DNA from: Stegostoma tigrinum
Lineage: Eukaryota
Direction of reading: 5' to 3'
DNA length: 64,000 nucleotides
Assembly (NCBI RefSeq): GCF_030684315.1
Contig: NC_081381.1
Location: 28,475,114 to 28,539,113 of the forward strand
The translations under genes and the position numbers were made by a program. This document shows, in pieces, positions 722-63,741 of the stretch. Each line of letters opens with the position of its first letter. Position 1 is the first letter of the stretch. The notes under the pieces were generated by a model that worked only from the letters and a program-made list of their open reading frames with translations, was not told where the DNA came from and did no database searches.

Positions 722-3700
722 CTGCAGAAAAGACAGTGAACAGTGGGAATTGGTATCCATGTCACCAGTACTTGTATTTTTTTAAAACTCTAAATGCTGA
801 AAATTGGACAATTCTTTTGACTTGCAAATATGTTTTGCAACTTAATGGCAGGTTCCAGCTGGTCATAGTGACTTCAATACTTGCAAGCTAATTATTGAAA
901 ATAAAGACTAACCAGAAGACGTGCTTGTTCAGGGGTCAGCGAGGCACCTTCTTTACATACATCATAATCAGATAATAATGTCACAACACCTAGGAGAGAG
1001 ACCACAAGTGAAATCCAACTACTGTTGACTGTTCCAAATCTTATTCTTTCCTCTATGACAGTAGAAAATTAGATCACCAGCTACTATGTCATTGTCAGTT
1101 TGCATAAATTGCTATTGTTTACTACCATACCTTTCTTCAGAGTGGTTGGTAACCCAAGCTGTCGCAATTGTGGCTCAAGAGAGTGTGTGAACTGTGGCAG
1201 GGGCCCAGCATCGAGTGTAACGGCCATTGTAGCTACATTCCCAGCACGAGCAAAATCAGACTCTGTGTACTGCTCAAACCACCTACCAATTTGGGAAAGA
1301 CAGCATGTTACTCAGTAGAAAGACTAAAGAATTAAAAAGGAGTGGGAGTAGCTAAAGCAGGTCAAAGGAAGTGGACAGAAAAAAAGACTCACTTGATCAC
1401 TTGCACTTTTGTTCGATTAGTGAACAGAAGACCAACTTCACCTTGCAACTGCTTGCTGACCTAGAGAGAGAAAAGATTCTGCAGATGCTGGTAGTATTCA
1501 GATCAGGCTGCATTGGGAGAATGCAATGCAGGATTAATATTTCACAAAGACCTTTCACCGTAACTGAGGCAAGACAAACTTGAAACATTAACCCATGAAA
1601 CAAGTTTTCATTATGGAAATTTAAACTCAAAAGATGATTCTCTGGTCACAAACACGGCCAATTCAGAAAGCATACCTTGTGCAAACCATCCTTGTATTCA
1701 TCTGCTGGTTCTTTTCCCAGTGCCACCATCATCACTTTGTTTTTACCAAAGAAAAACCTGTTTAAGCACAGAACAATAGTTTCACACTTAAAACTGATAG
1801 CAATGATAAGAGTACATAAAAATGAAGTCAAGCTATTTACATCACTAGGTAATTGGTGAAGAGGGAAGAGACAGTCGAGATAATGAACATGCATTCAATT
1901 TGCAGAATCTAACAAGTGGTTCAGAATATTCTGAAGAGGTATCATACCCTGTCTCTCATCATGAATGCTGTCATACAGGAGTTCCCGCAGCACTTTGTTT
2001 TTATCCCAGATTTCCAACACCCACAGTATTTTGCTTTTACATATCTAAGTTTCCTTGGAACTAAATTAGGTAATGCAGTAAGTAACATCGGTAGCAATAA
2101 AAGGCCTTGAAATGGACAATGTTAGATTTAAGTGGATAAATCAATGGCAAAGGAATGTGGTGTTCACATTGAAACCAAAGCAGTGAAGTCAGAACATTTT
2201 TCAAATGAAAAGAATCTTGGAATTGAAAGGTAATAGGGATTTCATTAACTGAAGCTGATAAGATTTATGTCAGAGGTGGGCAACAAGGCGCCAACATGGA
2301 TTCAAGCCAGTGAGACAGAGGCTGAAATAGCCTCGTTTGTGACAGGAGTTTATTAACCACTCAGTCTAACAGCTCCTTACACACAACCATGCCAACAGCT
2401 TCCCATTTTTATCTACAGTCAGTTAATTGATTTATTAACGCCCATTTTTGCTTCACTACTTGCTGTATTAACATATTGCCCTCTTATCATAAGAGGTCTT
2501 ATGGTGCAATAGCAATTCCCCTTGAGCCAGATGGTTTGGATTTAAATCTCACTCATCCGTGAGGTTTGCCATAGCATGTCCAAAATGGTTGACTTAAAAT
2601 AACTTGTGGTGCAGTGGTAGTGTGTCCCTTTCCCTGGGCTAAAAAGCTGGGTTCAAATTTCACTTCAGGATTTGATGGTCATGGAGATGCTATATCAGAT
2701 TGAGGAGAGAAAATCCCCTTGTCTTTTGAATATATACAAATCAACCCTTGGCTAAAACTACACGAAGTAAATATGATTTCACATAGTTTACAATATAACT
2801 GATCACAATAACTTTTTTTATGTTCTACACAATACAAACCTTTCATATTTCCTTTTCTTTGAACGTAAGTAATTTAGTCACAAAGTGACTGAAACAAAAA
2901 TTGATATTTTTCCCTTGTATTTTTGTTAGTCCTCACAGAGTCAGGTGTTCTTTTTCAAGAATTTCCAATAATTTCTCTAGAGCAAGCAGTTTTTCAGAAA
3001 CATTCTGACAACTGCTATCACATACCAATCCACTTAAGACCCTTTAGTGAACATACATTATCCTAATCCGTTATCCACATAACATTCTATAGGCAAACTT
3101 CTCCCAGACTGGAAATCTTACATTAAGATTTATTTTAGAATTTCAGACAAATATCTCCCCGTTGTTACAATTTCTACCATTGTCAAAGATTGGCTACTTT
3201 TAACTAATGTTTATTTTCTTGGCTTCCCAAGGTAATGGATAACATTTATTCATTCCTACAAGTAGATGATAAATCTGGCCATACTTGAACAGATACCTAG
3301 GTGATTGGAATATGGATATGAAGCTTTGCTATAAAAAGGACAAGCTTCATGTCTTTGGGTGACCCAAAGAGAAAATAAATTTATATGTTTCGTACTTATT
3401 TCAGAATCCCCTTCCCCTCTCCCATTTCTGAAGAGTCCAGACCCAAAACGTTAGCTTTCCTGCTCTTCTGATGTTGCTCGGCCTGCTACGTTCATCCAGC
3501 TCTACACCTTGTTATAACAGATTCTCCAGCCTCGGCAGTTCCTACTATCTCTCTCCCCACGTTGTATTGTCTGCTTTATTTTCTAGAGGTAGCTCCATTC
3601 TCACTCTCTTCTGTAATGATTCTCTTTTCATGTTGATGCTTATAATCTATATTTGGGCAATCTGGAGTTGCTGCCCTCCATCCTTTGTGCTATCGCTGAA

Positions 3701-10239: not shown

Positions 10240-32312
<22,073 letters not shown>

Positions 32313-35353: not shown

Positions 35354-35520
35354 GATAGGAGATAATGGGAACTGCAGATGCTGGAGAATCCGAGATAACA
35401 AAGTGTGGAGCTGCATGAACACAGCAGGCCAAGCGCAGTACCTTAGGAGCACAAAAGCTGACGTTTCGGTCCTAGACCCTTCATGGCCTGCTGTGTTCAT
35501 CCAGCTCCACACTTTGTTAT
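35354..35520. mobile_element. palindromic Penelope-like pLTR (family A)
   Basis: Inverted arms; 15-bp TSD CGAGGGCTGGTTTGA at 35339-35353 and 35521-35535. Confidence 0.75.
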
Positions 35521-35869
35521 CGAGGGCTGGTTTGACCTCTGTTTCAAAGGATTGTTATTCTTAAACGTTATGTGGTTGATTTACCATAATAATAGGGGGC
35601 TGAAAAGGTAAAATTGAGAGGACAAGTTAAAGAAGATACCTTGGAAATGCAGCTTTTACACACTAAATAAAACAGCGTGTGACGTAGGTTTTACCCCAGC
35701 CCCTCCCCCTCGTTTGCTAAAGACGAATTCCAGAGACTAGTTTTGTATTCCACGGACTATGAGGCATTGATTATGCGATGTTTGAAATAATTAAAATATA
35801 ATTAACAAAGAGCAATCTATTTCATGTCATAGAACTCAGCTGAAAATAGTAAAACTCTGAGCTTGCTTC

Positions 35870-36320
35870 GGATGAGATGAGGGATTTGAAACGGGTAAAG
35901 TTACTTCAGTTGCAGCGCTCCTCCACAGAACCAAGGCTGGTGTCTTCCGGCCGCGCCCACCAAGAATTGCACGCTGGGATCAGCGGACCGGACGACTTTG
36001 TGTGGCACGTCAACGGTAACGGTGTTAGGCCGCCCGGAGTCTTTAGAGTGTTGCACCAGAAGGGCTGCGGAAGATGGCGCTTAACTCGGCCCCAGCACCA
36101 GAGCCAGATCCGGACTGGAGTGCTGCGGTCCGCCCGCTTCTTGCCGCCTCCTATTCCACCTTCGAGCCGCGGGACATTTCTCAACTTTTCAGTTCAATCA
36201 TTAATAGGTAAAGTAGGATTGGGAACACGCCGGCCACCGGCCCGGGCGGGAAGGGTTCGGGTGCAGGATTCCTGGAAGGGTGGACCCGGTAATGAGCCCC
36301 GAAGTCTCGAAAGATCTCTC
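35870..36320 (+). promoter_or_regulatory. UBR4 CpG-island promoter and first exon region
   Basis: Local CpG enrichment; YY1-type AAGATGGCG overlapping the ATG. Confidence 0.65.
36074..36207 (+). CDS. UBR4: UBR4 coding exon 1
   Basis: aagATGG Kozak context; MALNSAPAPEPDPDWSAAVRPLLAASYSTFE...; donor GTAAAG. Confidence 0.9.
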
Positions 36321-39300
36321 TGTTCAGACTTGGGCTCCCTACGTTCGTTAGGATGGTGGGGGTGGCAGTCAGGGGAAGAAAAACAAGCGTAGAACCTTCT
36401 GTCTGTTGGAACAGCCGGGAACTTTCTAGTATCCGAAGCTCCGAGGGGGAGGGGCTGGATTAAAATGTACCTCACACCCTCCTTTTTTTAATATATTAAA
36501 ACTACATTTATGAAGCACCTTCATTTTAGAAAAGTATCTGAGGCGTTTCGTGGATTTCAGTGTTGAACCAGTATCCTCGTGGTAGGAGGTGAGCATAGTT
36601 ACTTTTACAGTATGGAAAGAGACTCTTGCTCCACCGTGTCCGCGCCGGTCAGCAAGTATCGACCGGTTCTTATCCCATTTTCGAGCACTTGGCTGGTAGC
36701 CTTGGATTCTGTTGCGTTTCAGGTACTCATCTATGTACGAATTAAATGTCTCGAGGGATTCTGCCTCTACTACTCCTTTGGCAAACAGTTCCAGATATCC
36801 AAGATAACAAAATGTGAGGCTGGATGAACACAGCAGGCCAAGCAGCATCTCAGGAGCACAAAAGCTGACGTTTCGGGCCTAGACCCTTCATCAGAGTTCC
36901 AGATATCCAGATGGGTGAAAAGACTTTTGTTTGAACCTCCTGCTCCTGACCTTAAAGGGGAATATTTTTCCCGACCTAACCCATGCCCCTCAGAACTTTG
37001 TAGACCTCAGTCGGATCCCTTTTCAATCATCTTGTCACCAAGGAGAATTAGCTGAATTTCCCCAGCAAAGGCAGCATTCTGGCGAATCTTTTTTGAACCT
37101 CTCTAATGCAATCATGTATTTTCTTTAGTGTGATGATCAGAGCTGCTGATAATACTTCTGCCTAAGGATATGTACAACTAATAACAACCTTGCTGTTGTA
37201 GTCAATGACTTGACATATGAAGGAAATACCCTTGTCTTGCCTTAATCATCCTTATCAACCTGTCTTTCTGCCTTCAAGGTTTTATAGATACACATCCCAA
37301 GGTCCCTCTAATCCTCTGTGCTTTCCAGGGTCCAAGTATTTAATGTGTACTCCCTTGTTAACCTTCTCAAATGTATCAACTCTGATTTTTGAGCGTAAAT
37401 TCCATATGTCATCTTGTATTCCAAGCTTTTCCTCGTTGCTGTTTGCCACGTGACCAACTTGAATGTCATCTGCGCATCTTCTGACGCCTTTCGATCATCA
37501 CTTTCTTTCCTGCCATTAAGCCAATTTCGATCCAATTGATAAATTACTCGATCCCGTGGGCTTTTAATTTAACCAGTCTGTCATGTGAGACATTGTCAAA
37601 AACAATATTGAGGTCCATCTAGATATTTTCTAATCAATCTGTTCAAACATATTATGACACATCTGGTGCAGGTATGACTTGAACCCAAACATCCTCGCCC
37701 TCCAATAGCACTACAAGAGTTCCACTGAAGTCATGTAAACTACATCAGTTGTCCTTCTCTATGCACCTAGTCACTTACTCAGACTTAAATTTCACTGGCA
37801 GATGTGGTGAGATTCGAACCCATGACCCCAAAGGATTAATTTAGGTATGTGGATTAATAGCCCACTGGCATTAGCCACGAGGTATATGTTTCAAATCAAA
37901 TTTTCAATTTTTAACAATGGATATTCAAAGATCATCTTAAAGGATGTCATACGTACTTAAGTACAGTGAAGACAATCACAACATACGAGGACACATCATA
38001 GGGTGATTAAACAGCACAAGGTATACAAAGTTACAGCTGAACACAGTACACAAAAGGAAGATCAACATTAGCTTTATAATTTGAGAGGTCCATTCAACAT
38101 CCTAATAACAGAGAAGCTGTTTTTTTAACCTGTTGGTACAAAAGGTTAAACACGTATCTTCTGCCTGATGGAAGAGTAAAACCAGAGTGGGAGGGGGCTT
38201 TGGCTGCCTTTCTGTGGCAACAATAAGTATAGATGGATTTGATGGTTGGGAGGTTGGCTTGTGTGATGGTTTGGGCTGTGTTCACAATTGTCTGTAGTTT
38301 CTTCTGGTCCTTGGCAGGGCAGTGCTATACCAGGCCATCATGTACCCAGATAAAATGCTTTCTGTGGTGCATCTGTAAAAATTAAGGAGGGTCCTTATGG
38401 ACATGCTGAATTTCCATAGCCTCCTGAAGAAGAAGAGGTGTTGTGCCATCTTGACTGTCGCATCTACATGGGAGGACCAGGATAAATTGGTTGTCATCAT
38501 TCCTGGGAACTTGACGCTCTCTGCTTCAGCTCTATTGATGTAGATGGATGCATGCCCTCCTTTCTTTGTAAAAGGTTGAGGAAAGGAATACTGGAGCTTG
38601 TGCTCCTCTGTTTGGGCGCAAGGGTAAGAGTATTTTTAAGATACTGGAGTCAGGAACTTTGGGCAAGTATAGTGTAGAAGTAGCTGACGTTTCAGGCCTA
38701 GACCCTTCATCAGAGAGGGGGATGGGGTGAGGGCTCTGGAATAAATAGGGAGAGAGGGGGACGCGGACCGAAGATGGAGAGTAGAGAGTTGCAATGGGAG
38801 AGAGATTCCCTGAGGTTGGTCCGGAGGGAGGAGGGTAACCTCTCTCCCTATTTATTCCAGAGCCCTCACCCCATCCCCCTCTCTGATGAAGGGTCTAGGC
38901 CCGAAACGTCAGCTTTTGTGCTCCTGAGATGCTGCTTGGCCTGCTGTGTTCATCCAGTCTCACATTTTATTATCTTGGAATTCTCCAGCATCTGCAGTTC
39001 CCATTATCTCTGATACTATTTTAACCTCACTGCGAAGCCTCTTCCAGGGATGCCTAACCTGAAGAAGTTACCCTCCTCCCTCCGGACCAACCTCAGGGAA
39101 TCTCTCTCCCATTGCAACTCTCTACTCTCCATCTTCGGTCCGCCTCCCCCTCTCTCCCTATTTATTCCAGAACCCTCTCCCCATCCCCCTCTCTGATGAA
39201 GGGTCTAGGCCCGAAACGTCAGCTTTTGTGCTCCTGAGATGCTGCTGGGCCTGCTGTGTTCATCCAGCCTCACATTTTATTATGTAGAAATAGCTGTCTG

Positions 39301-42300
39301 CCAGTTATCCACTTAGTTCAATTTATATCTGTTCTTTTAAAACCCTTTTGGTTTTAAACACCTCTTGTTAGGTCAGTGTCCTCAACTGAAAGGAGTTGAA
39401 ACCATGTTTGTGCAATCTCTTCACTATAATTTTGGCGATGTCAGAGTCTGTTTTGGTTTCGTGCTAATGACCCTACCTCTGAGCCAGGATATCAGAGTTG
39501 AGATCCTAGCTGCCCCAGACGTGTATCATGACATGTTTTATAAACAACCTGTTCAGACATCTATAAATGCGTTGCACGGGACTCCTTTTGTTGCATTAGT
39601 CGTATCTTTGCTTTTGAGTTAGCTATGGGTTCAAGCCGCACCTGCTCCATAGGGATGTCGCAGCATGTTTAAACAGGTTGATTAAGAAGATATCAAAATC
39701 ATAATATCTGGGGGCTCTTGCAGTGGTCGTGTCCCTGCCCCAGAGCTAAGAGGCCTTTTCCAGAGGTGTGTTGTGATGTCTCTGAATTGATTACAGATTC
39801 TCTAAACTGTGATGTCATGATATCCATCCTGGTAAATCTGTATTGTTTCCTTTCCCTGAGGTCTGTCTAAAATTGAGTGCAGGTGGAATCTATATTAATG
39901 AAACCTAATTTCTTCCCATTTCAGGTAAAGCTTACATTTCAATAGCCTGAATGATTTTCTGTTATTCCCATTGCTAACTTTTTTGCTATTTTTTTTCTCC
40001 TCTTGGGTACTCAAGTACTTTTGCTTCCCACAGTTTCTGATATTTCAACATGATGAAAATAGTCTGATTTGTCTTGTATGGAAAGAAAATGATCTCTCTC
40101 GCCTACTTTTAATTCCATTACCATTGGGTTTCCCCAATCGCTTTCTGTGCTTTGTGATGCCCTCTTTCCGTCAACACAGTTTCCTGTGCCTACTGTCTAG
40201 TACTAACCCAGTGTCGTCTGCACACTTGGATTGTAAGCTTTCTTTGCTTTGTCGCTCTTGTTGAGATGAAAATCCGAGGTCAGTGTCCAACTTCTCATCA
40301 CAAGGTTGTCTCTGATTTCCTAAAACTTATGCTGACCAGTCGTGTTGAAATCCCATTAGATATTTTCTAATCAATTCGTTCAGTGGTATTATGAAATGCC
40401 TCCTGTCTCAGAGGAAGAAACACTGCCACTGCACCATAAGGGTCATCACTTTTATTTAATATCATGTACCCCATTACATACAACTAAAATAGGTATTTAT
40501 TTTGAATTTCCCTATTTTAGTTGATTATCCCACATTAGTTTTCTTCTATTCGGTGCAGCACTCCTACAAAACGTCAGTGACCAGTTATAGTTTATAAAAC
40601 ATTACGTTTCTGATGTTAAATTGTGAGCAGTAAGCATCCCTGCACGCTAGGCCACTTAATGGTATAAACTATCGAAAACAATAGCCTATTGTCTTATTTT
40701 TCTGATATAGCTGAATAAAGCAGAAGATGCTGTCAGCTTCCAACATAGTTAAAATATGTGTTCGAAGAATGACTCTGAGTCTGTTCTAAACTAAAGTGGA
40801 TAATTAAACTCTTCTTTGGCTTCAAATTTTTGGAGTACTTGCGTTTTTTTTTATTTGCAGAATATATGAAATTACTGCTGTGGATAACCTGCTAAATGAT
40901 GGCAGGTTGAACACATGATGTGCTGGTGACAGCTATGGTTACATAATCCTAACTGAATAAAAACTAATAGTTGTGTGAATGTATAAGGAATATAAATAGA
41001 CTGAGGCTGGATGACTATGCATATAGTTCCTGTGTCTGTTCATACGCAATGCAGTAGCACTCTGGAATCCACCTCTGACTTGCAGTTTAATCTGGGCATA
41101 TTTTTTAAAAAAAAACACAGACCTCAGATGGTGAACCTTCTTTATCCAGCTTCTATAATGAGTTAATGATAGTTTATCTGTTTTGTTTTGTCATCCACTC
41201 AAACTGTTTTGGTGAATGCATTGATGAGGGAAGTTGTCTCACTTGAATTGTAATTGCTGTTCACAAGATTTGTTTTTGTGTACACTGTCAAATGGAAGTT
41301 TCTGCTGCTTTTCCTAGTCAAAATTTTATAGCTGGTTGAAGCTAAAACTTTGCCAGGTAAATTAGTACAGTGAGACATGATGTAAGAAGGCTAATTATCC
41401 TCTGGTTTGCAGTTTGAGCAAGAAACAGTAACTACAAGTGGGACAAACTGCACATACTGTAAATAGTCAATGTAAAATGCATGCTAAAGAAAAATGCATC
41501 AGTAATGCTTGTGTCAATATGGCACCTACTTTGTTTAAACTCTTCTTCGTATTTAAATTGGCTCAGTTGCCTTGGTTAAAGCCTTTTACTAACATCTTGA
41601 GTGGGAGTAAACATCCGATGGCTCTTTTTGAGTAAATATAGGATCATTCTCCTCTGAGACCTGGATGGTATTTTTTTTAAACCAACAGCATGAAAATAGC
41701 ACTCTGTGGTCACATTTTTCAAATTGCTTATGGGACATTTGTGTGAGATTGATTACCAGGTTTCTTCATTACAGCAATACCTGCTTTGTGCTAGAAAAGA
41801 GTTTTGGAAAATGCTGAGAACCACTATTCAGGCATAGGCTATTCTGTACATCCACTGTACCTAGTAAAGTACAGGCATTACCTTGATTTTTATTTAATTC
41901 ATTCTTGAAATATGATTATTGCTGGCAAAGTCAACATTTGTAGCCCATCACCTGCCAGTAATTAACAGTGTAGTTTGAATCCTTTAACCCAGGACATTGC
42001 CTTTTATTTTAGCTGCCATTGATTGTGTTTTCTGTGACACATTTCAGGAGTGCAACCCACTGAAACAGTCGTTGTAATCTTTGATCAGCTTTGGATGCAA
42101 TTCTCTGATCTGAGGCAACCAAACATCAAAAATTCTGGACTGCAAGTTTTGCTACAGTACCTCCAAAGGGCTCAAGGAAAAGTGCCGCATCAAAATTCAG
42201 ATAGGCGAGATCAGTGTTGTCCATTTGAAATTGCTCACAGGTCATTACACGAATGCTGATTTAGCCATTGGAAGCTGGTTTAAATTTTAAAGATTTTAGG

Positions 42301-45300
42301 TTTTTATTTGCTAAAGAGATCAAGATGTGGCAAAAAAGCAGGTTAGTGGAGTTGAGGTACATTTCAGCTTTGGGGAACAGGCTTGAGGATTTGATTGGCA
42401 GCCGCCTCTCATCAGACAAACAATGTAGGAACTGAACTGGGCCATTTGGCTTGTTGAATCTGCTGTGTCATTCAGTGAGATCGTAGCTGATGTGATGATT
42501 TACAACTTCACTTTCCTGCCTTTTCTCCATAACCTTAGATGTTAAATTAGTAAGGGAATCCATCTCCGAATTGAATGTGTGTAATGACCTATCTGATACA
42601 ATCCTCAGAAGAAATTCCTACTCGCTGCTGCCTTAACTGGACAAACCCTTGTTCTGAGAGTATGCTTCCCGGTTTTAGACACTACTGCAAGGGGAAGTAA
42701 CTTCTCTGTATGGAGTCTAGCCTACTCAATCTCTCCTCGTAAGACAGTCTCCCCGTATCTGGAATCTACCTAGTGAAGTTTCTTCGGCCTTTTCCAATGT
42801 AGACCTTTCCTTCAGTAAAGAGACCAGACTGCGGTATTCCAACTGTGGTACAGTTTTAGCTTGACTTCCCTATTTTTATACCCCGTTCCCTTTGCATTAA
42901 CAATATGCATTTGTTTTGGGAGATGCTTTACCAACATTACACAGTAGAGGTAAATATACTTTGCAGTTTAATGTTTTAATGTGCATACCACAATTCAGTA
43001 ACCACTCAATGGTTAAACTTATTAAAAATTTACAATAAATTCACAAATTAAGGTTCTCGTGGAAATACTGACATATGCCCAATGACACTTTGTTCCACAA
43101 GTTAGAAATGCATTGAACTGTGGCTGGATGTACAACTGTCCACATATAGCTCGATTTAGATATTCGTCAGCTTTCAGAACAGTTTGTTGAAAAAGGTACT
43201 TCAGGATCCATTGAAACAAGCCTGACATTGCCCAAACTTTAATAAAGACTTGTATCCCTTAAAAAGAGGCTACTTGTGTGATATTGTATTTGTTAAAGCT
43301 ATGAGTGTGAATATTAACTGAATTGCAAAAACAAATAGTGATCACTGGAATTTTTGCTGATGAAAACGATCACATTCCCATTGTTTATGTGCATATTCCC
43401 TGTCAGAAACCTGAACTATTATTATGTTTTTGTTTCAGCATAGATTGTAAGTAGGGGAACTTGCTTGAATAGCTCTGCCCTAGTTTTCATTTTGGCATGA
43501 TTACTGCACACACATCATAATCTGCAATGTAAGTGCACATGTTCAGCGAGTCTATTTTTAAACAGCCCTAGCCCCTCCTCACCCTCCCTCACCTCCCACT
43601 TGATCACCACCCCTCATTTGTACCTCTGTTTTTCCCTCCCTTTTCCTTGCCATCTTCCACTTCAGAGGGCAGGCTTGAGTGTGAATTTGAGAAAAGTGTA
43701 GGAAGCAGCAAGGGGGGTGAGGTAGGGTAATTTGAGATGAGCAGTAAATGCTAGTCAGAATCACCCATATTCCTTGAGGAAAGAAAAATAATTTACCTCT
43801 ATAGTGTTATGCACTTCCCGAGCCCAAATCAAAAAGCCTTTTAGCTGTTTGGCGTTATAAAGCTTAAACTGCATTATAACTCACTTCTAAGTTAGAAATG
43901 TTGAGTACCGAATTGATCCATTACTGTTATTTCTTTGGGGTTGGTTAGTTTATACTCATGTTGATTGGAAGTTTATAACTTGATTGTTTTGTGTTTCAGT
44001 GAGAAGCAGATTCTGCATCATGACAAACAATATGAACCCTTCTATTCCTCATTTGTGGCTCTCTCTGCACATTACATCTCAACAGTCTGTGCACAAAGTA
44101 AGTGTTTCTAATTGACTCTTCTTTCATTAATGCTGTTTAAAGTTGATAAAGAAACGAACGTTTGCCTGTATGAGAAGTCTTTAATCACTATTTTGAGCTG
44201 CTTTTGTGTTTAAAATCTCTTGAATCAAGGTGGAATTCAGGGTGCTACCATGATTGCGGCATAAGGAAGTGGTGTGATAAGAAAAATGTGGGCATTTGGG
44301 AAGTCTGCGTTTAACACAACAATATTTTTGCAGCACTTAATTGAACGACTCAAAATATACATGCTTTTGGATATATTGTTTCACACGGATTATAACAGAA
44401 TCATGAAATGATAGAGCAGAGAATGAGGCTCAGCATTTGCTAAAGTAAGATATCCATGTTGTTGTAGAAAGCTGGGTTTACTTTTTGAATGAGATGAAAC
44501 TAGGCAATGTTGCCCACCCAAGTAATCCCTTGCAGACAAAATTATCAGAACCAACTCAAAATGAACAATATTTCAAACCCAGTTTTAGCGTCAAGTTACT
44601 GGACTCTGAACGTGTGAACCAGGCTCAATCTTCTTGTGTTCTTATCTGACTTGACTTGGGGTGGCACCGTGGCTCATTAGTTAACACTGTTGCCTCAGAG
44701 TGTTGGGGACCCGTGTTTAATTCCACCCTTGGGTGACTGTCGGTGGAAAGTTTGCACATTTTACCTCTGTCTACATGGGTTTCCTCCCACAGCCCAAAGA
44801 TGTGCAGGTTAGGTGGATTAGCCCTGGTAAATTGCCCTGTCATGTCCAGGGATGTGCAAGCTAGGTTGAACAGCCATGGGAAATGTAGGGTCACAGGAAT
44901 ATGGTAGGGGGGGAACTGGGCCTCAGTGGGATGCTCTTCAGAGGGTCTGTGTGGATTTGATGGGCTGAATAGCCTGATTCCATGCTGTAGGAATTCTGAT
45001 GATTAGCTCTTCGAAAGAACTGACCAATTAGTCCCATTCAAGTATTGAGAGGATTGCTACAGGTTAGTCGAGAATAGCAACAGATTTTTTCATCTTTTAT
45101 TTCCTAAAATACTTAAGGTTTTGAAAATGCCAAGTCGCCACAGCTAATCTTAATTCCAATATTTATAGTTCCTAGGAATCAGCTGCTGTCTGTTGCAGCT
45201 GCATGTAAAGTCCTGATTGAATTCTCATTGATGCGCCTTGAGAATCCAGATGAAGCATGTGCCGTTTCACAGGTACTGATTTTAAAATCTCTGGTTGTCA

Positions 45301-48300
45301 TGCTGTCTCTGTGTTATGTGTTTGTATTCTTCTCTGCACCCCCCGCCCCCCGCCATGTCCCATCTCTCCACCACCACTATTCCTGCTGTGATATTTAACA
45401 TTGTTACTGGTGTGTCCTAAAAAGAATCTGGGGAAGAATGGAATGGGTGTTACTTATCTACATATTTTATTATTTGACAGTTTCTCCAGAAGTTTCTCAA
45501 CTTTGACAATTGCAAAACCCTATTTATTCCCAAATAAAACACTTGACTTCATGAATAATTCAGGATGGTCAGAGTCGTGGACAACGAGCTACTTAATGGC
45601 AGTGCTGACTGAACTTCAAAATAATTACCGGTCTCTTAAAACACATCATCTTAATACTTCCCTTACTTGAGGGATGTAGTTATACTGGAGGCAGTTCAGA
45701 GAATGTTCAATAGATTGATTCTAAAAATGAGGAATTTGTCTCATGAGAGATTGAGCAGTTTACATCTATGTACTGTGGAATTTCGAAGATTGAGGGAAGA
45801 TCCAGTCGACGTATACAAGATGCTGAAGGGGATTGGCAAAGTGGACGTTAAAAGAATGTTTCTTTATGTAAGTCAATCTAGAATGTCAGGTCAGAAGTCT
45901 AAGAGGTAGCAGATTTAAAACAGATGAGAAACTACCTCTCGGTGTTGTGAATCTATAGAATTCAATATCCCGAGTGAAGTGGATGCTGAACATTGTGAGT
46001 AAATTTGAGGAGCTGGACAGATTTTTAGTTCATAATGGGTTGAAAATTACAAAGTGGGCAAGGAGGTGAAGTTGAAGCTGAGATGAAGTAAGCCATGATC
46101 ATATCAAATGGCAGAGCAGGCTCGGGGGTGCTGAAATACCTATACCTGCTCCTTGTCCTCGTGCTCAGATTATGAGAGAGGAAGGAAATTTCAAAAATTC
46201 CTTTATCTTTTGCAAACCTCCCAATTCTTATGCAAATTATTGCTGGCTGGTATTAAATAAACTAGATTTTCCAAATTCATGATAAAATGGACTCAACAAA
46301 ATTATCTATTAATCTCAATTGCTGATGTTTGTTTTTCTCTTCTACTGTTCTTGAGTGGCGATATTATATTGGCAACTCTGTCATTCTCCTCAAAAATTCA
46401 ATTTCCAAGGATATTTGAAATATTTCCCCCCCATTCAGATTCTAAAACTTTTGTCACCCAAGTTTTTATTACGTGAATTCAAACGCATTCAGATTTTTAA
46501 GTGCATTCGATCATTATGTCTCATTTACATATTGCCCCATTCTTGCCATTTTTAAAATTATTCATTCACAGGATGTAGCTGTCACTGGCTAGGCCGGCCT
46601 TTAGTGCCCAGAGAGCGGTTAAGAGACAGCCACATTGTTCTGGATCTGGAGTCACATGTAGACCAGACCAGGTTAGAATGGAGGATATTCCCTGCAGGAC
46701 ATTAGTGACCCAGACAGGTTTTTCCTGACTTTCAACATTGGTTTTGTGGTCATCACAGCATGATCAATTATAGATTTTTTTGTTTTCAATTGAATCTAAA
46801 ACCCGTCATCTGCCATGACGAGATTTGAATCTGGGTACCCAGATCGTTATTCGTATCTCTAGATTAACAGCCTAGTGATCATACCACTAGGCCAGTGCCT
46901 CCCTGTTTGAACATCTATCCATCAGTGTATAATCCAGAGTCTTTGATCTTTCCTGTGAATCCATCCATGGCTTACTGTCCTTCTGCAGTTAGCTCCAGTC
47001 CTGTTTTCTTCCATGGACTCTCTATTCAATCCACCTTTTGTTTACTGGATTCCCTCTGCTGTAGAGTTAGTGTTTTGTAGAAAGTAACAAAAAGCAATCA
47101 ATGTCTGCCAAACTGTTGTTCTATATCTTAAAGAATGGAAGTTATGCATCTGTGAAATGAGCCTTGGTCATGTCCTGTTTGAAGTATTGTGTACAGTTTT
47201 GGGCAGCATTCCTCAGGAAAGAGGTAATCACCTTTTGAGATCTGCAGCATATATTGATCAGAACCATCCTGAGGTTCAAGAGGGTTTAATTATGGAGACT
47301 AGTTGTAAAAATGTAGCCTGGATGCCTCTAGAGTTGAGCTTTAGCAATAAACTTGATAAGATGTTTAAACTATTAATTTGTTAGATTATGTTAAACTATT
47401 TTAAGGAGTTAATAAAAAGGGGCATAATGTTAATATTGAAGCTCATCTAATGAAGTATGAAATCAGTGATAATGGGAACTGCAGATGCTGGAGAATCCAA
47501 GATAATAAAGTGTGAAGCTGGATGAGCACAGCAGGCCAAGCAGCATCTCAGGAGCACAAAAGCTGATGTTTCGGGCCTAGACCCTTCATCAGAGAGGGGG
47601 ATGCGGTGAGGGTTCTGGAATAAATAGGGAGAGAGGGGGAGGCGGAACAAAGATGGAGAGAAAAGAAGATAGGTAGGGAGGGGGATAGGTCAGTCCAGAG
47701 AAGACGGACAGGGAGGTGGGATGAGGTTAGTAGGTAGGAAATGGAGGTGCGGCTTGGGGTGGGAGGAAGGGACGGGTGAAAGGAAGAACAGGTTAGGGAG
47801 GCAGAGACAGGCTGCGCTGGTTTTGGGATGCAGTGGGGGGAGGGGAAGAGCTGGGCTTGTTGTATGGTGCAGTGGGGGGGGTGGAGGGTGAGCTCCTTTC
47901 TGCAACACGCAGTCAGACAAATTGAGACAAAAATATGAATGGTTCTGATGAGAGTTCAATGACCTGAAAAATTAAGTGTTTTTCTTCTCAGACATTGTCT
48001 GGCCTACTAAGTTTGTTTTATCCATTGATTTTTGTTTTTAGTACAAATCTAGAACACTTTCTTACATCAAACTTATCCTGCTATCCCAAAAAACTCTGGA
48101 TGTCCAAGGCTAGTTGTAGGTGTCAAGACTGAGAATAGTTTTTTTTAAGTTAAGCTATTAGGGCAGTAGAATGAAAATCAGAAAATTAAATCAAGATGTG
48201 GATGAGTTGTGATCTAATTGAGTTGCAGAATGTGGGGATCTTGTATGACCTGTTCATGCTCCTAATAGTCATATGTTTAACCATCTCTCAGAAATTCCTT

Positions 48301-54300: not shown

Positions 54301-57300
54301 GTAAGTGTTGCAACATGCATGGCTATTCTACATGTGGGTAGCAGCCTGCAAGTACGATCTGGGTCCACCAGTAAGGAAGAAGACTATGAGAGTGATGCAG
54401 CCACAATAGTACAGAAATGTGTAAGTACTGAATAAGTGGGTTAGGGGTTTTGTTGAATTTGGCCTGTTTTGGTTGACCTTGTCATTGGAAGAAAAATATT
54501 TGCTTCATCAAATTATTTCCTATCAGGGCCAAATGATCTTCATTCAGTCTAATCCAACCTGACCTGGTGTGTATCTTGAATTGACATTGTCTCCTGCCGT
54601 TTCTCTTCCCCATATCTTACCATAGATATCCCATGTCCTATCATAGAATCACTGTAAATGTGAGGCTGGGTTCACAAGTTGTTCGTAGTTATTTTTATTC
54701 AACCTGTTCAGAAATGTCATTAAACACCACCAGGTGATGGGATTTGAGCCCAAGTGTCTTGGTTCAGAGGTTAGGGACATTACCACGGCTACACAAGCCC
54801 TCCAGTACTTATGTTTATTGTTTGAGAACATTACTAAATTAATGTACTATTCATCATTTACAGCTGGAAATCTATGACATGATTGGCCAAGCAATTAACA
54901 GCTCACGACGTGCAGGTGGTGAGGTAAGGAGTAGGTTTGGTATTTTACTGATTGAGTAGGAAAAAAAGTTGTTGAATTTACAAAACCTTTGCATGTAGAA
55001 AAGGCGGAGGTTGTTTTGCAGTTCATGTGCAGAAAACATTGGCTGTATATTCTGTGGATGAATATGATGTGAAATTGCTGCATATGATCTAGGTTAGAAT
55101 ATAGAACATTACAACACAGTACAGGCTCTTCGGCCCTCGATGTTGTGCCGACCTGTCATACCGATCTGAAGCCCACCTAACCCACACTATTCCACTTACG
55201 TCCATATGCTTATCCAATGACAACTTAAATGTACCTAAAGCTGGTGAATCTACTACTGTTGCAGGCAAAGCGTTCCATTCCCTTACTACTCTGAGTAAAG
55301 AAACTACCTCTGACATCTGTCCCATATCTTTCGCCCCTCAATTTAAAGCTATGCCCCCTCGTGCTCGCCGTCACCATCCTTGGAAAAAGGCTGTCCCTAT
55401 CCACCCTATCTAACCCTCTGATTATTTTATATGTTTCTATTAAGTCACCTCTCAACCTTCTTCTCTCTAATGAAAACAGCCTCAAGTCCCTCAGCCTTTC
55501 CTCGTAAGACCTTCCCTCCATACCAGGCAACATCCTAGTAAATCTCCTCTGCACCCTTTCCAAAGCTTCCACATCCTTCTTATGATGCAGTGACCAGAAC
55601 TGTACATGATACTCCAAGTGCGGCCGCACCAGAGTTTTGTACAGCTTCACCATAACCTCTTGGTTCCAGAACACACTCCCTCTATTAATAAAAGCTAAAA
55701 CACTGTATGCCTTCTTAACAGCCCTGTCAACCTGGGTGGCAACTTTCAAGGATCTGTGTACATGGACACCGAGATCTCTCTGCTCATCTACACTACTAAG
55801 AATCTTACCATTAGCCCAGTACTTTGCCTTCCGGTTACTCCTACCAAAGTGCATCACCTCACACTTGTCTGCATTAAACTCCATTTGCCACCTCTCAGCC
55901 CAGCTCTGCAGCTTATCTATGTCTCTCTGCAGCCTACAGCATCCCTCGTCACTATCCACAACTCCACCGACCTTAGTGTCGTCTGCAAATTTACTAACCC
56001 ATCCTTCTACGCCCTCATCCAGGTCATTTATAAAAATGACAAACAACAGTGGACCCAACACTTGCGGTACATCACTAGTAACTGGTCTCCAGGATGAACG
56101 TTTCCCATCAACTTCCACCTCTGTCTTCTTTCAGCAAGCCAATTTCCGATCCAAACTGCTATATCTCCCACAATTCCATTCCTCTGCATTTTGTATAATA
56201 GCCTATTCACTCTAGAAAACGACAATGTTGCCGAGGACAATACTGAGATACAGGCTACTAGACTCAGTGTGATTGAGGCTCACAAGGAAGAGGTATTAGA
56301 AATCCTTCAGAGGGTGAAGGTAGATAAGTCCCCTGGGCCGGATGGAATTTATCCTTGGATCCTCTGGGAAGCCAGGGAGGAGATTGCCGAGCCTTTGGCA
56401 TTGATCTTTAACTCGTCATTGTCTACAGGAATAGTGCCAGATGACTGGAGGATAGCAAATGTGGTTCCCCTGTTCAAGAAGGGGAGTAGAGACAACCCTG
56501 GTAATTATAGACCAGTGAGCCTTACCTCGGTTGTTGGTAAAGTGTTGGAAAAGGTTATAAGGGATAGGATTTATAATCATCTAGAAAAAAATAATTTGAT
56601 TAGGGATAGTCAGCAAGGTTTTGTGAAGGGAAGGTCGTGCCTCACAAACCTTATTGAGTTCTTTTAGAAGGTGACCAAACAGGTAGATGAGAGTCAACCG
56701 GTTGTGGTGTATATGTTGTTGTTTCCTGAGTTTGTAACATCTGTGTGTCACCTAAGAATAACTCTGAACAGTCGGGAATGTGTTTGATTCCACAGGCCCC
56801 AATCCAGTGTGGTTCTTAAAAGCTTTATTTTTGTAATTCAGTGAAACTGGCAAGACAAATCCCCATTCTGAGAATGTTTTGGTACCTTGTGGTAAATTTT
56901 GCTTCCTTGATGCTGTTTGGTATAGAATTGCTGGATATTTGCTAATTAGCAATGAAAGATAGGATAGGATGATGTGTAACTTGGAGGTATTTATTCTTTC
57001 ATGGGAGACTGTTACTCGCAAGACCAAAGTTTGTTGCCCACCCCTCGTTAGCCTTGAACTGAAGAGGTTGCTAGGCCATTTCAGAGGACAGATTGAATCA
57101 ACTACGTTGTGGGTTTAGAGTTATGTGTAGGCCATGCCCTGGGTATGGATGATAGATTTCCTTTCTTAAAGAACATTGAACTTTAGATGGTGTATTAATT
57201 ATTGCTGTTCTTGTCCTTCTCAGTGATATGAATCAGATTAGTTAGGAATTACTGGAGTCATCTTGATAGATTGTCGCTGTGAAATCTTTGAGTTCATTGT

Positions 57301-60300: not shown

Positions 60301-63300
60301 CCCATGAGACATTGATGGAGTACTGGAACCCATTTGCTCTGTTGTGAGATCCAACCCTTGCTTGTAGCTTGTGTAAAGAACTGGTATTCAGTTGTGGATA
60401 GAAACTGGCAGGGATATGGGAGCATTACGCTGGAAATTGCATGGAACAAAGTGCAGAACATGGGCAACTAAAATGAATCTGACTCAGTTTCTGTCTGGGG
60501 TAAATTTGGTTGGTTTCTTTCTGATGAGTGATTATACATGCTGCAAACCAATCCTCACTGCAATTTTTTAATAAGGGTTGATATCAGTTTGGACTTGTTT
60601 TCTGCTGCAGACATCAAGGGTTTGGCGTCTTGTCTGTGGTTCTGGCAAATCATGCTATCAAACTGTTGACATCACTGTTTCAGGATCTGCAAGTGGAAGC
60701 CCTTTACAGGGTAAGTGGAGCCCCTGTGTATAGTATGGTGGGTTATTTGTGAAGAAACCACTTATGTTTTCTGAAGTCTTGAAAGTAACATTTAATTATT
60801 TTTGTATTCACTGGTGGTTGAGGGTAAAATTGATTTTGATTAACGGTGGAATATTATGCAGTCTCAATGTATAAAGGATTGTGTTTAAACCATAAGTACA
60901 GAGACTTACATTGATATCCTGCCTGTGTCCCAAATTACATAGAATCGTAGAATCCCTACAGTATGGAAACAGGCCCTTCGGCCAACAAGCCACACCGAAC
61001 CTCGGAGCGTCCCACCCAGACTCACTGTAACCCACCAAATCTACACATCCCTGAACACCTTGGGCAATTTAGCATGGCCAATTTTACCTAACCTGCATAT
61101 CTTTTGGACTGTGGGAGGAAACCGGAGCACCCAGGGGAAACCCACGCAGACAAGGGGAGAATGTGCAAACTCCACACAGACAGTTGCCCGAGGGTGGAAT
61201 TGAGCCCAGGTTGCTGGCGCTGTGAGGCAGCAGTGCTAACCACTGAGCCACCGTGCCGCCCCTGTAACCACTGAAATACGCTATTGCAACATAACTTATG
61301 ACCCAACCAATTTACACACAGCTCGCTCCCAGATATTGACCAGGTAATGTTTTACACGGTCAATGGATAAATATCAGACGTGACATCTGAGAGAACTCTT
61401 TCTTCAGCTCTTGGATAAATATTGCTATTGTTAAACTAATCTTCTGAAAGCCATCATAATGGTCAACCTTTAATTTCAACAGGGTTGGAGAGGTGATGGA
61501 CCACCTGCAGAGCTTAATATCATGGCACAGAGCTCATCTATTCAACGTGTGCAGAGACTGATCGAATCTGTTCCCCTCACCAACTTGCTCTTCACATTGT
61601 TGTCAACATCGTACAGAAAGGTAATCACTTGTGCCGCAGAATCAAAATGCAAAATGAATTAAATTGCTCACTGTGTCGGTGCTATCTTTGATAAAGCAAT
61701 CCAGAATTCATCAGTGACCACGCTCTTCTCCTCAGTCCTGTGTTGTTCTAAGCTAATCCATTTGGCAGTTCTGTCCTCTTAATGCTACATCAATCCAAAA
61801 TTAACCCACTCTGTAGCTCTCTGCAAAATGGTTTACACTAATTCTTAGCTAATCCCACTGTCCACCCATCTTTCACTAATCACTATCAGTCTCATATGAA
61901 ACCCGCTGCAATAGTCCTCATACAGACCATGTATGAAATCAAAACTAGTCCTGCTGTCAGCTCTTCCTGTGAGCATTGTGTTAAGTGAAAACATAATATC
62001 AAAGCCATTCTCTCTCCCTGTATCAATTTAGGACTAATCCTATTGCACTGCATGCATTATACAGTCCTGTATAAACTCAAAACTAACCTTCTTTCCCATC
62101 TTTCTCCATATAGTTCTGTGTTCTTTGGGAACATACCCAAGATCACGAGATACAATAGTCGGTCACTTGCACTGTTTTTATGTTCCGATAGTCCGCTGAG
62201 TTCCAGCCTCTCCCTTCGAAATCTGAGTTGGTTGACTGGAGGAAATAGTCACTCTCTGCTGTCAAAACTCATTCAAATATTGAAATTCTGTACATCTGTC
62301 TACTTCACTAAAAATTGCCCCAGTCACAAGTGTCTCGTTGTTCTTACTGGACAGTCTCTGCGGTGAGCCCCTGTCTCAGTGTTTGCTCAAGTACGTAATC
62401 TCTTAATTCTGCTTCTAGAAAAGAATTGTTTTTAATTCTTTGTCCCTTTCTTTCCATAGGCTTGTGTTCTTCAACGCCAACGGAAAGGCTCTGTGAGTAG
62501 TGATGTCAGTGCGTCCACTGATTCAAACACCTACTATGAAGATGATTTCAGCAGCACTGAAGAAGACAGTAGTCAAGGTAATAAAATAAAAAGCCTTAGG
62601 GTTTATGTACAGTTCATGTGATGGATGAAAATTCATTGTAGTGAAACAGAAGATAGTTAATCTAGTAGATTGCCTGACATGTTAGACAGATTTGAGGTAA
62701 AGTAGCAGTTTTGCAATAGAATTCTAAATTCATTTCTGGGTAATGATTTGTAAATCATCTCAGTAACTTTTTTTATCCAGTGGACTGGTGTGAGACTCTC
62801 TGGTGATATCATCAGTCTGAGTATATAAATAAGCTAGAATTCTTTTAACTTTGCTTTCTCAGAGTAAACAATCTGATAACATTGCACAAAATTTGTGGAA
62901 ATAAACCAGAGAAAGTGAGAAGTAAGTTATTTCTATTGCTCTATGAATTAGTTGCTGGAGGTGATAATGCATCATCAATGGGATAAGGAAAAGTTTACGA
63001 TTTTCTTTAATGCCGGGGACAGTTTGGGTGTGGAATTTCACAACACAGCTGATGGTGTAAAAAGAATTCATTCACTTAGAAAGTGGATAAATATTTAAAT
63101 ATAAATTGATATGTAGAAATTGGACACCTTCTGGGAGCTGGTAAAGCATGATGGGTGGAATGATTCCCTTCTATAAAAGTCTGCGATTCTATTTTGATGT
63201 AACAAGGTGTAGAGCTGGATGAACACAGCAGGCCAAGCAGCATCAGAGGACCAGGAAAGCTGACATTTCTGGCCTAGACCCTCCTACAGCAAATTTGCCG

Positions 63301-63741
63301 AAGAAGGGTCCAGACCCGAAGCGTCAGCTTTCCTGCTCTGCTGCTTGGCCTGCGGTGTTCATCCAGCTCTACACCTTGTTTTCTCAGATTCTCCAGCATC
63401 GGCAGTTCCCACTATTTCTGAATTCTATTTTGATAGTTGTAATTGCTGATAACCACACTACTTATGGGTTGTGCTGTTTGTTTTTCAAGTTCATTTTTTG
63501 TTATTTAATTTGGCTTTATGCATGTGTTATTTCTTTTAATGTATACTTTACAGATGATGATAGTGAGCCAATACTTGGCCAGTGGTTTGAGGAGACCATC
63601 TCTCCCAGTAAGGAGAAGTCAGCACCCCCTCCTCCGCCGCCACCACCACCTTTGGAGAGTTCTCCACGCCTGAAGAGTCCAAATAAGCAGTGTTCTGGAG
63701 AGAATGGCAACATACTGGCGAGTCGCAGAGACCCTGAGCTG
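36074..63741 (+). CDS. UBR4: E3 ubiquitin-protein ligase UBR4 (p600), 5' part; 15 coding exons, 631 codons, continues beyond window
   Basis: Exons splice in frame (1893 nt). AVRPLLAASYS, QYEPFYSSFVALS, KHLILLIKGLCTGCSRLDRTE, GGSEKLLRVCLNLPYFLRY and DDDSEPILGQWFEETISPSKEK match recalled UBR4. Confidence 0.97.
36802..36894 (-). mobile_element. 93-bp solo Penelope-like pLTR with hammerhead core (family A)
   Basis: Reverse strand reads CTGATGAAGGGTCTAGGCCCGAAACGTCAGC; 15-bp TSD AGTTCCAGATATCCA. Confidence 0.78.
38000..38560 (-). mobile_element. Rex1/Babar-type LINE 3' fragment
   Basis: NLSWSSHVDATVKMAQHLFFFRRLWKFSMS..TLLNFYRCTTESILSG..AWY. Confidence 0.75.
38879..38914 (+). ncRNA. minimal type I hammerhead ribozyme motif
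   Basis: CUGAUGA-A-GGGU(CUAG)GCCC-GAAA-C-GUC; stem I only about 2 bp. Confidence 0.6.
39189..39224 (+). ncRNA. minimal type I hammerhead ribozyme motif (second tandem copy)
   Basis: Identical core 310 nt downstream of the first. Confidence 0.6.
44000..44097 (+). CDS. UBR4: UBR4 exon 2
   Basis: EKQILHHDKQYEPFYSSFVALSAHYISTVCAQ. Confidence 0.95.
44658..45004 (+). mobile_element. HE1-like tRNA-derived V-SINE
   Basis: A/B-box-like head, GTGGAAAGTTTGCACATT...CCCAAAGATGTGCAGGTTAGG core, CR1-type tail. Confidence 0.8.
45169..45272 (+). CDS. UBR4: UBR4 exon 3
   Basis: PRNQLLSVAAACKVLIEFSLMRLENPDEACAVSQ. Confidence 0.95.
45660..46165 (+). mobile_element. degraded CR1 LINE 3' fragment
   Basis: LEAVQRMFNRLI...VYKMLKGI; CR1-type 3'UTR. 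Confidence 0.65.
46555..46900 (-). mobile_element. Deu-domain (SacSINE1-like) SINE
   Basis: Reverse-complement homolog of 4427-4772. Confidence 0.65.
47465..47897 (-). mobile_element. Penelope-like element 3' end/pLTR (family A)
   Basis: Same pLTR as at 38.8 kb but with the long pyrimidine-rich 3'UTR retained. Confidence 0.75.
48906..49035 (+). CDS. UBR4: UBR4 exon 4
   Basis: KHLILLIKGLCTGCSRLDRTEIITFTAMMKSAKLP. Confidence 0.95.
49153..49292 (+). CDS. UBR4: UBR4 exon 5
   Basis: EDQKDSVSPVTPELRQKEVQMNFLSQLTSVF...VVQ. Confidence 0.93.
50439..50541 (+). CDS. UBR4: UBR4 exon 6
   Basis: VVGESDEQTGTDQA...FVAQNVSSLQAL. Confidence 0.9.
50740..51115 (+). mobile_element. LINE (L2/CR1-group) 3' end sharing its tail with the Deu-SINEs
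   Basis: TCAAAATCCTGGAA...CACCACCTTCTCAAGGGCAACTA..CAATAAATGCTGGC...ATCCCATGAATGAATA. Confidence 0.55.
52351..52492 (+). CDS. UBR4: UBR4 exon 7
   Basis: GSEKLLRVCLNLPYFLRYINRFQDAV...DATAVRN. Confidence 0.95.
52660..53195 (+). mobile_element. degraded CR1 LINE 3' fragment
   Basis: VRPQLEY-like and FKAKVDIFL motifs; 3'UTR. Confidence 0.6.
53330..53454 (+). CDS. UBR4: UBR4 exon 8
   Basis: FHSLVIDVTMALDTLSLPVLEPL...LSCLYA. Confidence 0.95.
53600..53985 (-). mobile_element. degenerate Deu-domain SINE with (ATTT/ATTC)n tail
   Basis: Same family; expanded microsatellite tail at 53600-53648. Confidence 0.55.
54299..54420 (+). CDS. UBR4: UBR4 exon 9
   Basis: VSVATCMAILHVGS...DYESDAATIVQKC. Confidence 0.95.
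54864..54923 (+). CDS. UBR4: UBR4 exon 10
   Basis: LEIYDMIGQAINSSRRAGGE. Confidence 0.94.
55094..56715. mobile_element. CR1-clade LINE with inverted 5' segment
   Basis: Minus ~55094-56205 is the RT C-terminal half plus 3' tail. Plus ~56204-56715 is the immediately upstream ORF2 segment (KSPGPDGI...YRPVSLTS...CLTNLIEFF). Confidence 0.92.
58885..59075 (+). CDS. UBR4: UBR4 exon 11
   Basis: HYQNFQLLGAWCLLNSL...KGKEKDPLAALRVR...GSPKL. Confidence 0.95.
60611..60710 (+). CDS. UBR4: UBR4 exon 12
   Basis: HQGFGVLSVVLANHAIKLLTSLFQDLQVEALYR. Confidence 0.95.
60938..61262 (-). mobile_element. HE1-like tRNA-derived V-SINE
   Basis: GGGGCGGCACGGTGGCTCAGTGGTTAGCACTGCTGCCTCACAGC head, V-domain and GATTCTA tail. 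Confidence 0.85.
61483..61620 (+). CDS. UBR4: UBR4 exon 13
   Basis: GWRGDGPPAELNIMAQS...LLSTSYRK. Confidence 0.95.
62460..62577 (+). CDS. UBR4: UBR4 exon 14
   Basis: ACVLQRQRKGS...NTYYEDDFSSTEEDSSQ. Confidence 0.95.
63199..63421. mobile_element. palindromic Penelope-like pLTR pair (family A)
   Basis: Inverted halves centred near 63293; 13-bp TSD ATTCTATTTTGAT at 63186-63198 and 63422-63434. Confidence 0.75.
63554..63741 (+). CDS. UBR4: UBR4 exon 15
   Basis: DDSEPILGQWFEETISPSKEKSAPPPPPPPPPLESSPR...RDPEL; donor GTGAGT. Confidence 0.95.

Follow-up and report, generated by a model that had tools for sequence, protein, structure and literature searches.

The insertion in UBR4 intron 1

The window (the whole 64,000-nucleotide stretch of DNA analysed) carries, in intron 1 of UBR4 (36208-43999), a short insertion with the hammerhead motifs of a Penelope-like element (PLE). 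The host gene proposed in the earlier note is supported by exon 3 and a later exon, which match Pfam E3_UBR4_N; exons 1 and 2 were placed by their translations and splice sites and are presumed to belong to UBR4 from their likeness to the human gene, and the direct units of the insertion run sense to it. We number the element from 0, the last base 5′ of the predicted hammerhead cut (window 38910 or 39220), with + downstream and − upstream; 'parent' refers to the intact element L103 of the same genome, described below.

36074..36207, plus: first coding exon of UBR4 (presumed from likeness to human UBR4; exon 3 by Pfam)
38673..38686, plus: left target-site duplication (TSD), its last 5 nt complementary to the element around the hammerhead cut
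38682..38843, minus: inverted arm, parent +152..+212 joined to −96..+4
38686..38713, minus: third hammerhead core, with a single change in stem II; in the pre-mRNA it lies antisense to the two sense cores
38840..38910, plus: partial unit 1 (about −71..0), with a TATA-like TATTTAT (38849-38855), the GC box lost and a putative start at 38879; promoter role putative
38883..38910, plus: core 1, a minimal type I hammerhead with a 2-bp stem I; cut predicted after 38910
38911..39220, plus: 310-nt cut-to-cut monomer
38972..39011, plus: PLE 'tail' between two putative reverse transcriptase (RT) start sites, +62-68 and about +100 (PMC11167929)
39050..39123, plus: first 24 codons of the parent ORF, likely within a protein-recognition region (role suggested by PMC11167929)
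39123..39124, plus: deletion junction, parent +212 to −96 with one shared T, 3,312 nt removed
39140..39189, plus: GC-box-like motif (39140-47), TATA-like TATTTAT (39159-65) and putative start at −31 (39189); functions putative
39193..39220, plus: minimal hammerhead core 2, predicted cut after 39220
39221..39282, plus: 3′ end of the insertion, which runs to the proximal RT start site at +62
39283..39296, plus: right TSD
47462..47897, minus: ordinary 5′-truncated PLE copy of the same family (3′ UTR, hammerhead, tail)

This family has further short or older copies in the window, at 36797-36896, 35359-35521, 63200-63431, 3393-3552 and 8774-8897, the first of them beginning at −29, antisense and 600 nt into UBR4 intron 1. 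Upstream of UBR4 and on the same strand are exons at 23516-32309 (plus), which resemble EMC1 and two of which gave no Pfam match when tested. The window also contains two degraded LINE-type RT fragments (7002-8449 and 55225-56667, minus) and a short-period G+C-rich tandem repeat that is open in several frames (9419-9964).

The insertion is bounded by a TSD, as had been claimed, with 13 rather than all 14 of its nucleotides matching. The inverted segment is real: the arm at 38682-38843 pairs with 39063-39224 over 162 nt (97%) and also with 38839-38914 over 76 nt (99%). A direct repeat with a period of 310 nt is likewise present (38839-38981 versus 39149-39291, 95% identity), though the description as a tandem unit holds at this locus for its period and not for its extent, which is 1.4 periods; Tandem Repeats Finder (TRF), run on the window, reported no array, this locus included. 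Both sense cores are where they were expected, and they form minimal type I hammerheads with a palindromic stem III and a 2-bp stem I. A search of Rfam at E values up to 1 gave no hammerhead family match; its hits to MIR1858 and other microRNAs fell below gathering scores and were rejected as reflections of the inverted repeat.

The deletion junction exists one base earlier than first placed, T39123 being common to both sides, and it occurs exactly twice within the window, in the inverted and the direct parts alike. The copy at 47465-47897, against which the deletion had originally been read, cannot display it because this copy is a 5′-truncated 3′ end that lacks the left side; we therefore rejected it as the parent, and the deletion is seen against the intact L103 instead. 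The unit had also been called non-coding. Its RT and endonuclease (EN) are indeed deleted, but the first 24 parent codons are kept (ATG 39050) and continue into a 48-codon frame whose stop lies inside the second core.

The outer end of the inverted arm lies at the predicted cut site, within the 5-nt target match, rather than at a usual RT start site, an arrangement found in 2 of the 49 inverted insertions described below. At two sites that distinguish the units, the arm agrees with unit 1 and not with unit 2. This favours a template whose two units were unlike, although conversion between arms 81 nt apart could also produce the match. The insertion looks like a copy of such a two-unit template, with the 5-nt match at the cut site having primed its second arm. 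The promoter-like region of the arm (38682-38787, minus) is aimed antisense at UBR4 exon 1, ∼2.5 kb away. Since copies of the family occur every ∼16 kb (23 in 364 kb), the position in UBR4 is probably incidental.

The earlier note had further suggested that the two cores, once dimerised in the UBR4 pre-mRNA, could cut the 310-nt monomer out of intron 1. In favour of this, the cores lie 310 nt from each other on the UBR4 sense strand and both are intact. However, in nearest-neighbour predictions, which treat RNA free of protein, tertiary contacts and editing, the antisense arm paired one core at p = 0.96 in all five folding snapshots (core 1 early, core 2 once transcribed), so that two free cores are not predicted to coexist; refolding after 39200 does free core 1. 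The arm–core duplexes of 76 or 162 bp are worth −165 and −343 kcal/mol. Naked cores also prefer inactive folds, the dimer reaching −5.5 kcal/mol versus −22.8 kcal/mol for two monomer hairpins and −38 kcal/mol for the cross-paired form, and even when the arm is left out, forcing the dimer costs 31 kcal/mol (tertiary or protein stabilisation lying outside the model). An RNA begun at 38879 would escape the antisense arm, but that start has lost its GC box. Because the arm is transcribed first and pairs one core, we consider excision from the UBR4 pre-mRNA very improbable, and this copy is predicted to stay uncut there.

An intact parent and a dispersed family

We searched for a parent with a 24-nt mid-unit motif, which has 3,026 exact matches in the genome, and took 40 loci, hand-picked among the first 100 matches listed and all on C1. 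Among these, three (L101-L103) span a whole unit of ∼3.6 kb. L103 (G000:C1:22094950-22100950) measures 3,621 nt cut to cut, with repeats 98.7% alike, and holds an uninterrupted ORF of 1,076 aa (1319-4549, minus) in which RVT_1 (E 3.5e-5) is followed by GIY-YIG (E 1.5e-3), both under Pfam's cut-offs. The protein carries the catalytic motif YIDD and, in the linker that joins RT to EN, a CX4CXXC motif (CNRRKCYTC at residue 899) common to Neptune and Nematis, the two clades to which a CX2-5CxxC linker has been ascribed (Craig et al. 2021, PMC8557442). By this linker motif alone, which Nematis shares, the parent would be of the Neptune type. Near residues 240-290 its ORF also carries a repeat insert rich in Pro, Thr and Ala, and the C-terminal tail is rich in Pro and Ser.

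The window monomer corresponds to parent +1..+212, at 98.6% identity, joined via one shared T to −96..0, with 3,312 nt, or 91% of the element, gone. The PLE origin suggested for the unit is thus borne out by an intact parent in the same genome, whose RT and GIY-YIG ORF shares cis sequences with it. The insertion is an internally deleted, non-autonomous copy of that element. We firmly regard the unit as a non-autonomous PLE derivative, and both its parentage and its membership of a family are close to certain.

A genome search for the exact 310-nt junction, one of the checks proposed at the outset, returned seven occurrences, two at the UBR4 locus and five on C13, where the junction recurs in a two-armed array with its own TSD; the reversed junction, used as a genome-wide control, had 0 matches. 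Near-identical junctions occur at other loci, as expected of a dispersed family. A sister class of 305/306 nt is present at at least 12 loci, one with 12 full units, this count being a lower bound as 40 of 165 candidates were scored. A further class of 302/303 nt gave 35 matches at 18 loci. The 302-nt junction has a 6-nt microhomology and the 305/306-nt junction a 1-nt one; we rejected the 6-nt microhomology form for the latter, as that pattern retrieved the separate 302/303-nt class. The three junctions lie 3-4 nt apart in short repeats and may represent one lineage or recurrent events.

To describe the family more broadly, we mapped 86 insertions (at least 92% identity, both ends inside the locus, duplicates dropped). 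These fall into 45 junction classes after removal of one mapping artefact. BLAST places the ends to within a few bases, and classes that are nearly identical may stem from a single event. So many classes among so few insertions indicate that such units arise repeatedly. Unit lengths run from 166 nt to ∼700 nt. TSDs of 13-17 nt with at most one mismatch, lengths that are upper estimates, flank 12 of the 17 insertions tested, and arrays of up to 12 or more units lie inside the target duplications, in line with the proposal that the template was longer than one unit.

The arrays vary in makeup. The smallest unit, at L155 (G000:C1:140327500-140332000), has a 166-nt period running from −27, the first core base, to about +141, shows 8 junctions and lacks the promoter-like region. 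Two-deletion units at L161, L087 and L104 retain an internal piece of the ORF near +1012..1188. At L235 (G000:C2:58041000-58047000, 1974-3892), nine 208-nt units (−4..+203) sit inside a 10-nt TSD with the catalytic core absent, retaining exactly the substrate half, that is, the palindromic stem III strand and the cut site. This array could have been cut in trans or have formed independently of the ribozyme, and it indicates that tandem arrays can form in the absence of a cis ribozyme. L042 and L235 contain 4-unit higher-order repeats, which point to DNA-level duplication or assembly error.

Copy ends and junction breakpoints

To locate where copies begin and end, we sampled 67 copies; the DNA covered was 300 kb chosen arbitrarily, the window itself, and 20 stretches that surround a +1..+22 motif. 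Their 3′ ends fall at +55-75 in 33 copies and at +90-115 in 32, consistent with two RT start zones, at +62-68 and about +100; the PLE tail has been tied to two internal RT start sites by Frangieh et al. 2024 (PMC11167929). Inversion is common, in 49 of the 86 mapped insertions. The two ends come from different start sites in 40 of these 49 and from one and the same site in 2, while in 7 an end is atypical. The family therefore displays tandem pseudo-LTRs (pLTRs) and an inverted 5′ copy, with the 30-40-nt tail at exactly one end in 40/49, as in EN+ PLEs, for which a tail at one end only has already been described (Craig et al. 2021, PMC8557442). From this pattern we infer one RT start site per DNA strand.

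The 5′ ends fall in −33..−1 in 38 of the 67 copies and in −100..−34 in two, both from the window insertion. Genome-wide, 9,498 exact matches begin at −31, a count taken at that one position. G precedes 82 of the 100 such starts listed; at 20 loci read by eye, five have a G supplied by neither flank nor element, one has a T, and the others are ambiguous, in most cases because the G is provided by the inverted arm. A TATA-like motif lies 30 nt upstream of −31, and a GC-box-like motif lies at −80. A cap-derived extra G and a 30-nt spacing from TATA to start are known marks of capped transcripts, and the −31 boundary is likely a capped transcription start, judged from these sequence features.

A second, smaller peak sits at the cut. 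Among 186,685 matches, 3,622 begin at +1, versus 595 at +3, 967 at 0 and 408 at −4, the last being a control that is also a 4-nt palindrome; fold-back pairs in the first 86 Mb of C1 likewise number 22 at +1 versus 2 at −4. In fold-back insertions of this kind the fusion point is the 4-nt palindrome beginning at the cut (for example, L179, L191 and L196). Only ∼2% of copies end at +1, and the idea that +1 is the dominant 5′ end was rejected, with 4/67 ends at 0..+2. Of the +1 ends inspected, 19/31 have 3-4 nt of microhomology, such that the true end could be +3 to +5, and an RT stall at an inactive hairpin would also yield the peak. As evidence the +1 peak is moderate and indirect, and it would correspond to hammerhead cleavage in about 1-2% of templates.

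These end positions bear on how the junctions formed. On the upstream side of the 41 junction classes found outside the targeted junction searches, 34 keep −87 or more, 4 break at −70..−47, 1 at −27 and 2 at +1. The downstream breakpoints have a minimum of +141 and are mostly at +173 or more, where the motifs used force at least +122. Such limits fit selection for the promoter, the ribozyme, the start sites and a downstream protein-binding region; an anole PLE also requires an RNA region downstream of its start sites (PMC11167929).

Alternatively, arrays could be made anew at each insertion, with the RT jumping reiteratively on one RNA in a telomerase-like manner, in which case the units would not form a self-propagating family. 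Many junction classes do occur at a single locus only, the 6-nt microhomology of the 302-nt junction would suit such jumps, and L254 (G000:C1:149363000-149366200, 1280-1619) carries +1..+46 six times head-to-tail from the predicted cut, as if the RT had reiterated at the 5′ end of a cleaved RNA. However, the 305/306-nt junction, with its single nucleotide of microhomology, recurs across its 12 or more loci, the junctions mostly retain the promoter-like region, and they do not derive from common RT stop points, because 1 of 41 classes breaks in −33..−1 where 38 of 67 copies end. We therefore consider template jumping on one RNA improbable.

Proposed template cycle and relation to known elements

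To the established parentage, deletion, dispersed arrays inside target duplications and end positions, a fuller account would add predicted circles. The RT-endonuclease of the parent likely pasted in the insertion from an RNA that exceeded one unit in length, and hammerhead-cut, re-ligated circles are the likely form in which the family renews such templates. As a whole, this mechanism is the best explanation of the data, at a probability of roughly 0.55. In it, the GC box (−80) and TATA-like element (−61) would drive a capped RNA from −31. The parent protein would bind the retained ORF start and prime internally at about +65 and +100, one priming site per nicked DNA strand, giving inverted two-armed insertions. 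With priming upstream of the binding region, and transcription beginning downstream of the promoter, a competent daughter would require a template that exceeds one unit. Protein-assisted dimeric cleavage at two successive cores would then free a unit, a host ligase would close it and the RT would roll round the circle; arrays would also lengthen later by DNA duplication. A circle model was proposed earlier by Cervera and de la Peña 2020 (PMC7229834). In sequence, the junction of such a circle would be indistinguishable from that of tandem DNA.

The circle is favoured by units that are identical across both arms of one insertion (7/7 in L043, 5/6 in L120 and 9/10 in L236). It has to be weighed against a cycle of miniature PLEs that uses no circle, in which linear read-through transcripts of existing tandem arrays serve as templates. 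Unequal crossing-over would then let the arrays regrow as minisatellites do, and the hammerhead would be a passenger or do no more than remove the capped leader. The non-identical units of the window, with an inverted arm that resembles the first of them, are what such transcripts would leave, and the 4-unit higher-order repeats and the core-less array L235 fit as well. The inactive folds of the naked cores, and a monomer no more structured than its shuffles, also speak against the circle. Cleavage also appears dispensable in vitro, where ribozyme mutants of the anole PLE still insert (PMC11167929); one of nine Xenopus dimers was cleaved in vitro in the preprint of Li et al. (bioRxiv 10.64898/2026.07.22.740005), which proposes satellite-like growth. 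On the other hand, several identical units in both arms of one insertion (L043, L120, L008) suggest that the array length was probably present at insertion, a −31 start would cost every linear generation one promoter, and the second 5′-end peak sits on the scissile bond. We thus regard the linear cycle as possible but rather unlikely.

Whether these units are retrozymes depends on the definition. Retrozymes are tandem units of about 150-450 nt that each carry a type I hammerhead, which agrees with the two consecutive cores at UBR4 and the longer arrays elsewhere; the present units are dispersed with TSDs longer than 4 bp (13-17 nt in 12/17), and the UBR4 unit has no protein of its own, only the 48-codon remnant frame. 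It lacks the canonical hammerhead of the 2020 description, with a 6-bp helix I and tertiary contacts, stem I being 2 bp as in PLEs, and the monomer is not highly self-paired (−57.2 kcal/mol versus a shuffle mean of −60.3 kcal/mol, z +0.74). Li et al. admit minimal cores in their definition. By sequence and predicted folding, then, the family is a retrozyme under a loose definition, and a strict one fails on ribozyme type and self-pairing.

Metazoan non-LTR retrozymes have been described by Cervera and de la Peña 2020 (PMC7229834) and by Li, Clavereau and Pollet (bioRxiv 10.64898/2026.07.22.740005), the latter reporting them in one chondrichthyan, at a mean of 363 bp, and linking Xenopus families to PLE pLTRs. 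The present unit resembles them in its few-hundred-nt tandem arrangement, single type I hammerhead per unit, TSD of more than 4 bp and absence of an own enzyme. Unlike the characterised examples, with their canonical hammerheads and highly self-paired circles, it has a minimal PLE core, is not self-paired, is known as DNA, retains the start of the parent ORF and, a defined deletion aside, aligns at 98.6% to an intact parent.

The resemblance to EN+ PLEs of the Neptune type (PMC8557442) extends to the RT with a C-terminal GIY-YIG, the CX2-5CxxC linker, partial tandems, the inverted 5′-truncated copy and the 30-40-nt tail at one end, except that the window unit is without 91% of the element. With PLE minimal hammerheads it shares a palindromic stem III and an additional base ahead of stem II (Cervera and de la Peña 2014, PMC4209133). 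Like Poseidon PAc of Anolis (PMC11167929), the family appears to have two internal RT starts bounding the tail, a need for downstream RNA and both DNA strands cut and extended. PAc belongs to another clade and its ORF starts inside the ribozyme, whereas here the ORF starts at +139; in that study the start sites did not differ by strand in vitro and none of the reads ended at the cut, whereas here the arms use different sites in 40/49 and the cut is a peak of genomic 5′ ends. Non-autonomous PLE derivatives with multicopy head-to-tail insertions also include Chlamys elements such as MRC1 (Craig et al. 2021, PMC8557442), but these form a green-algal clade, are described as generally without canonical hammerheads and resemble their parents chiefly at the 3′ end.

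Earlier publications already cover non-LTR retrozymes, including a proposed PLE origin and an occurrence in one chondrichthyan, as well as minimal PLE hammerheads and non-autonomous tandem PLE derivatives. Our literature searches, which lay outside Repbase, Dfam and subscription journals, showed no description of this family (the supplements of Li et al. may list a related chondrichthyan one), no base-level deletion series from an intact parent and no genomic 5′-end footprints at a PLE start or cut. The cited papers argue for a PLE origin of animal retrozymes on the grounds of co-occurrence and pLTR likeness, and they leave open what PLE hammerheads do in vivo.

The value of this finding lies in the family and its parent–derivative series, not in the UBR4 locus. 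An intact parent and graded derivatives of 166-700 nt coexist in one genome at high identity, giving a base-level route from PLE to retrozyme-like unit and a natural deletion map of cis elements, and the genomic footprints of transcript start, cleavage and priming are directly testable. The unit and its family likely show how animal retrozymes arise. More tentatively, and at less than even odds, these may be retrozymes in the course of being born: one recently active PLE would shed dozens of independent mini-circles that define its minimal cis module, and its roughly 187,000 copies would record a capped −31 start, cap-removing hammerhead cleavage in vivo and a PLE dimer priming two DNA strands at two RNA sites. 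If so, rolling-circle reverse transcription would be the normal PLE cycle, and the minimal cis module would consist of a promoter, a ribozyme, two RT starts and the binding region at the ORF start.
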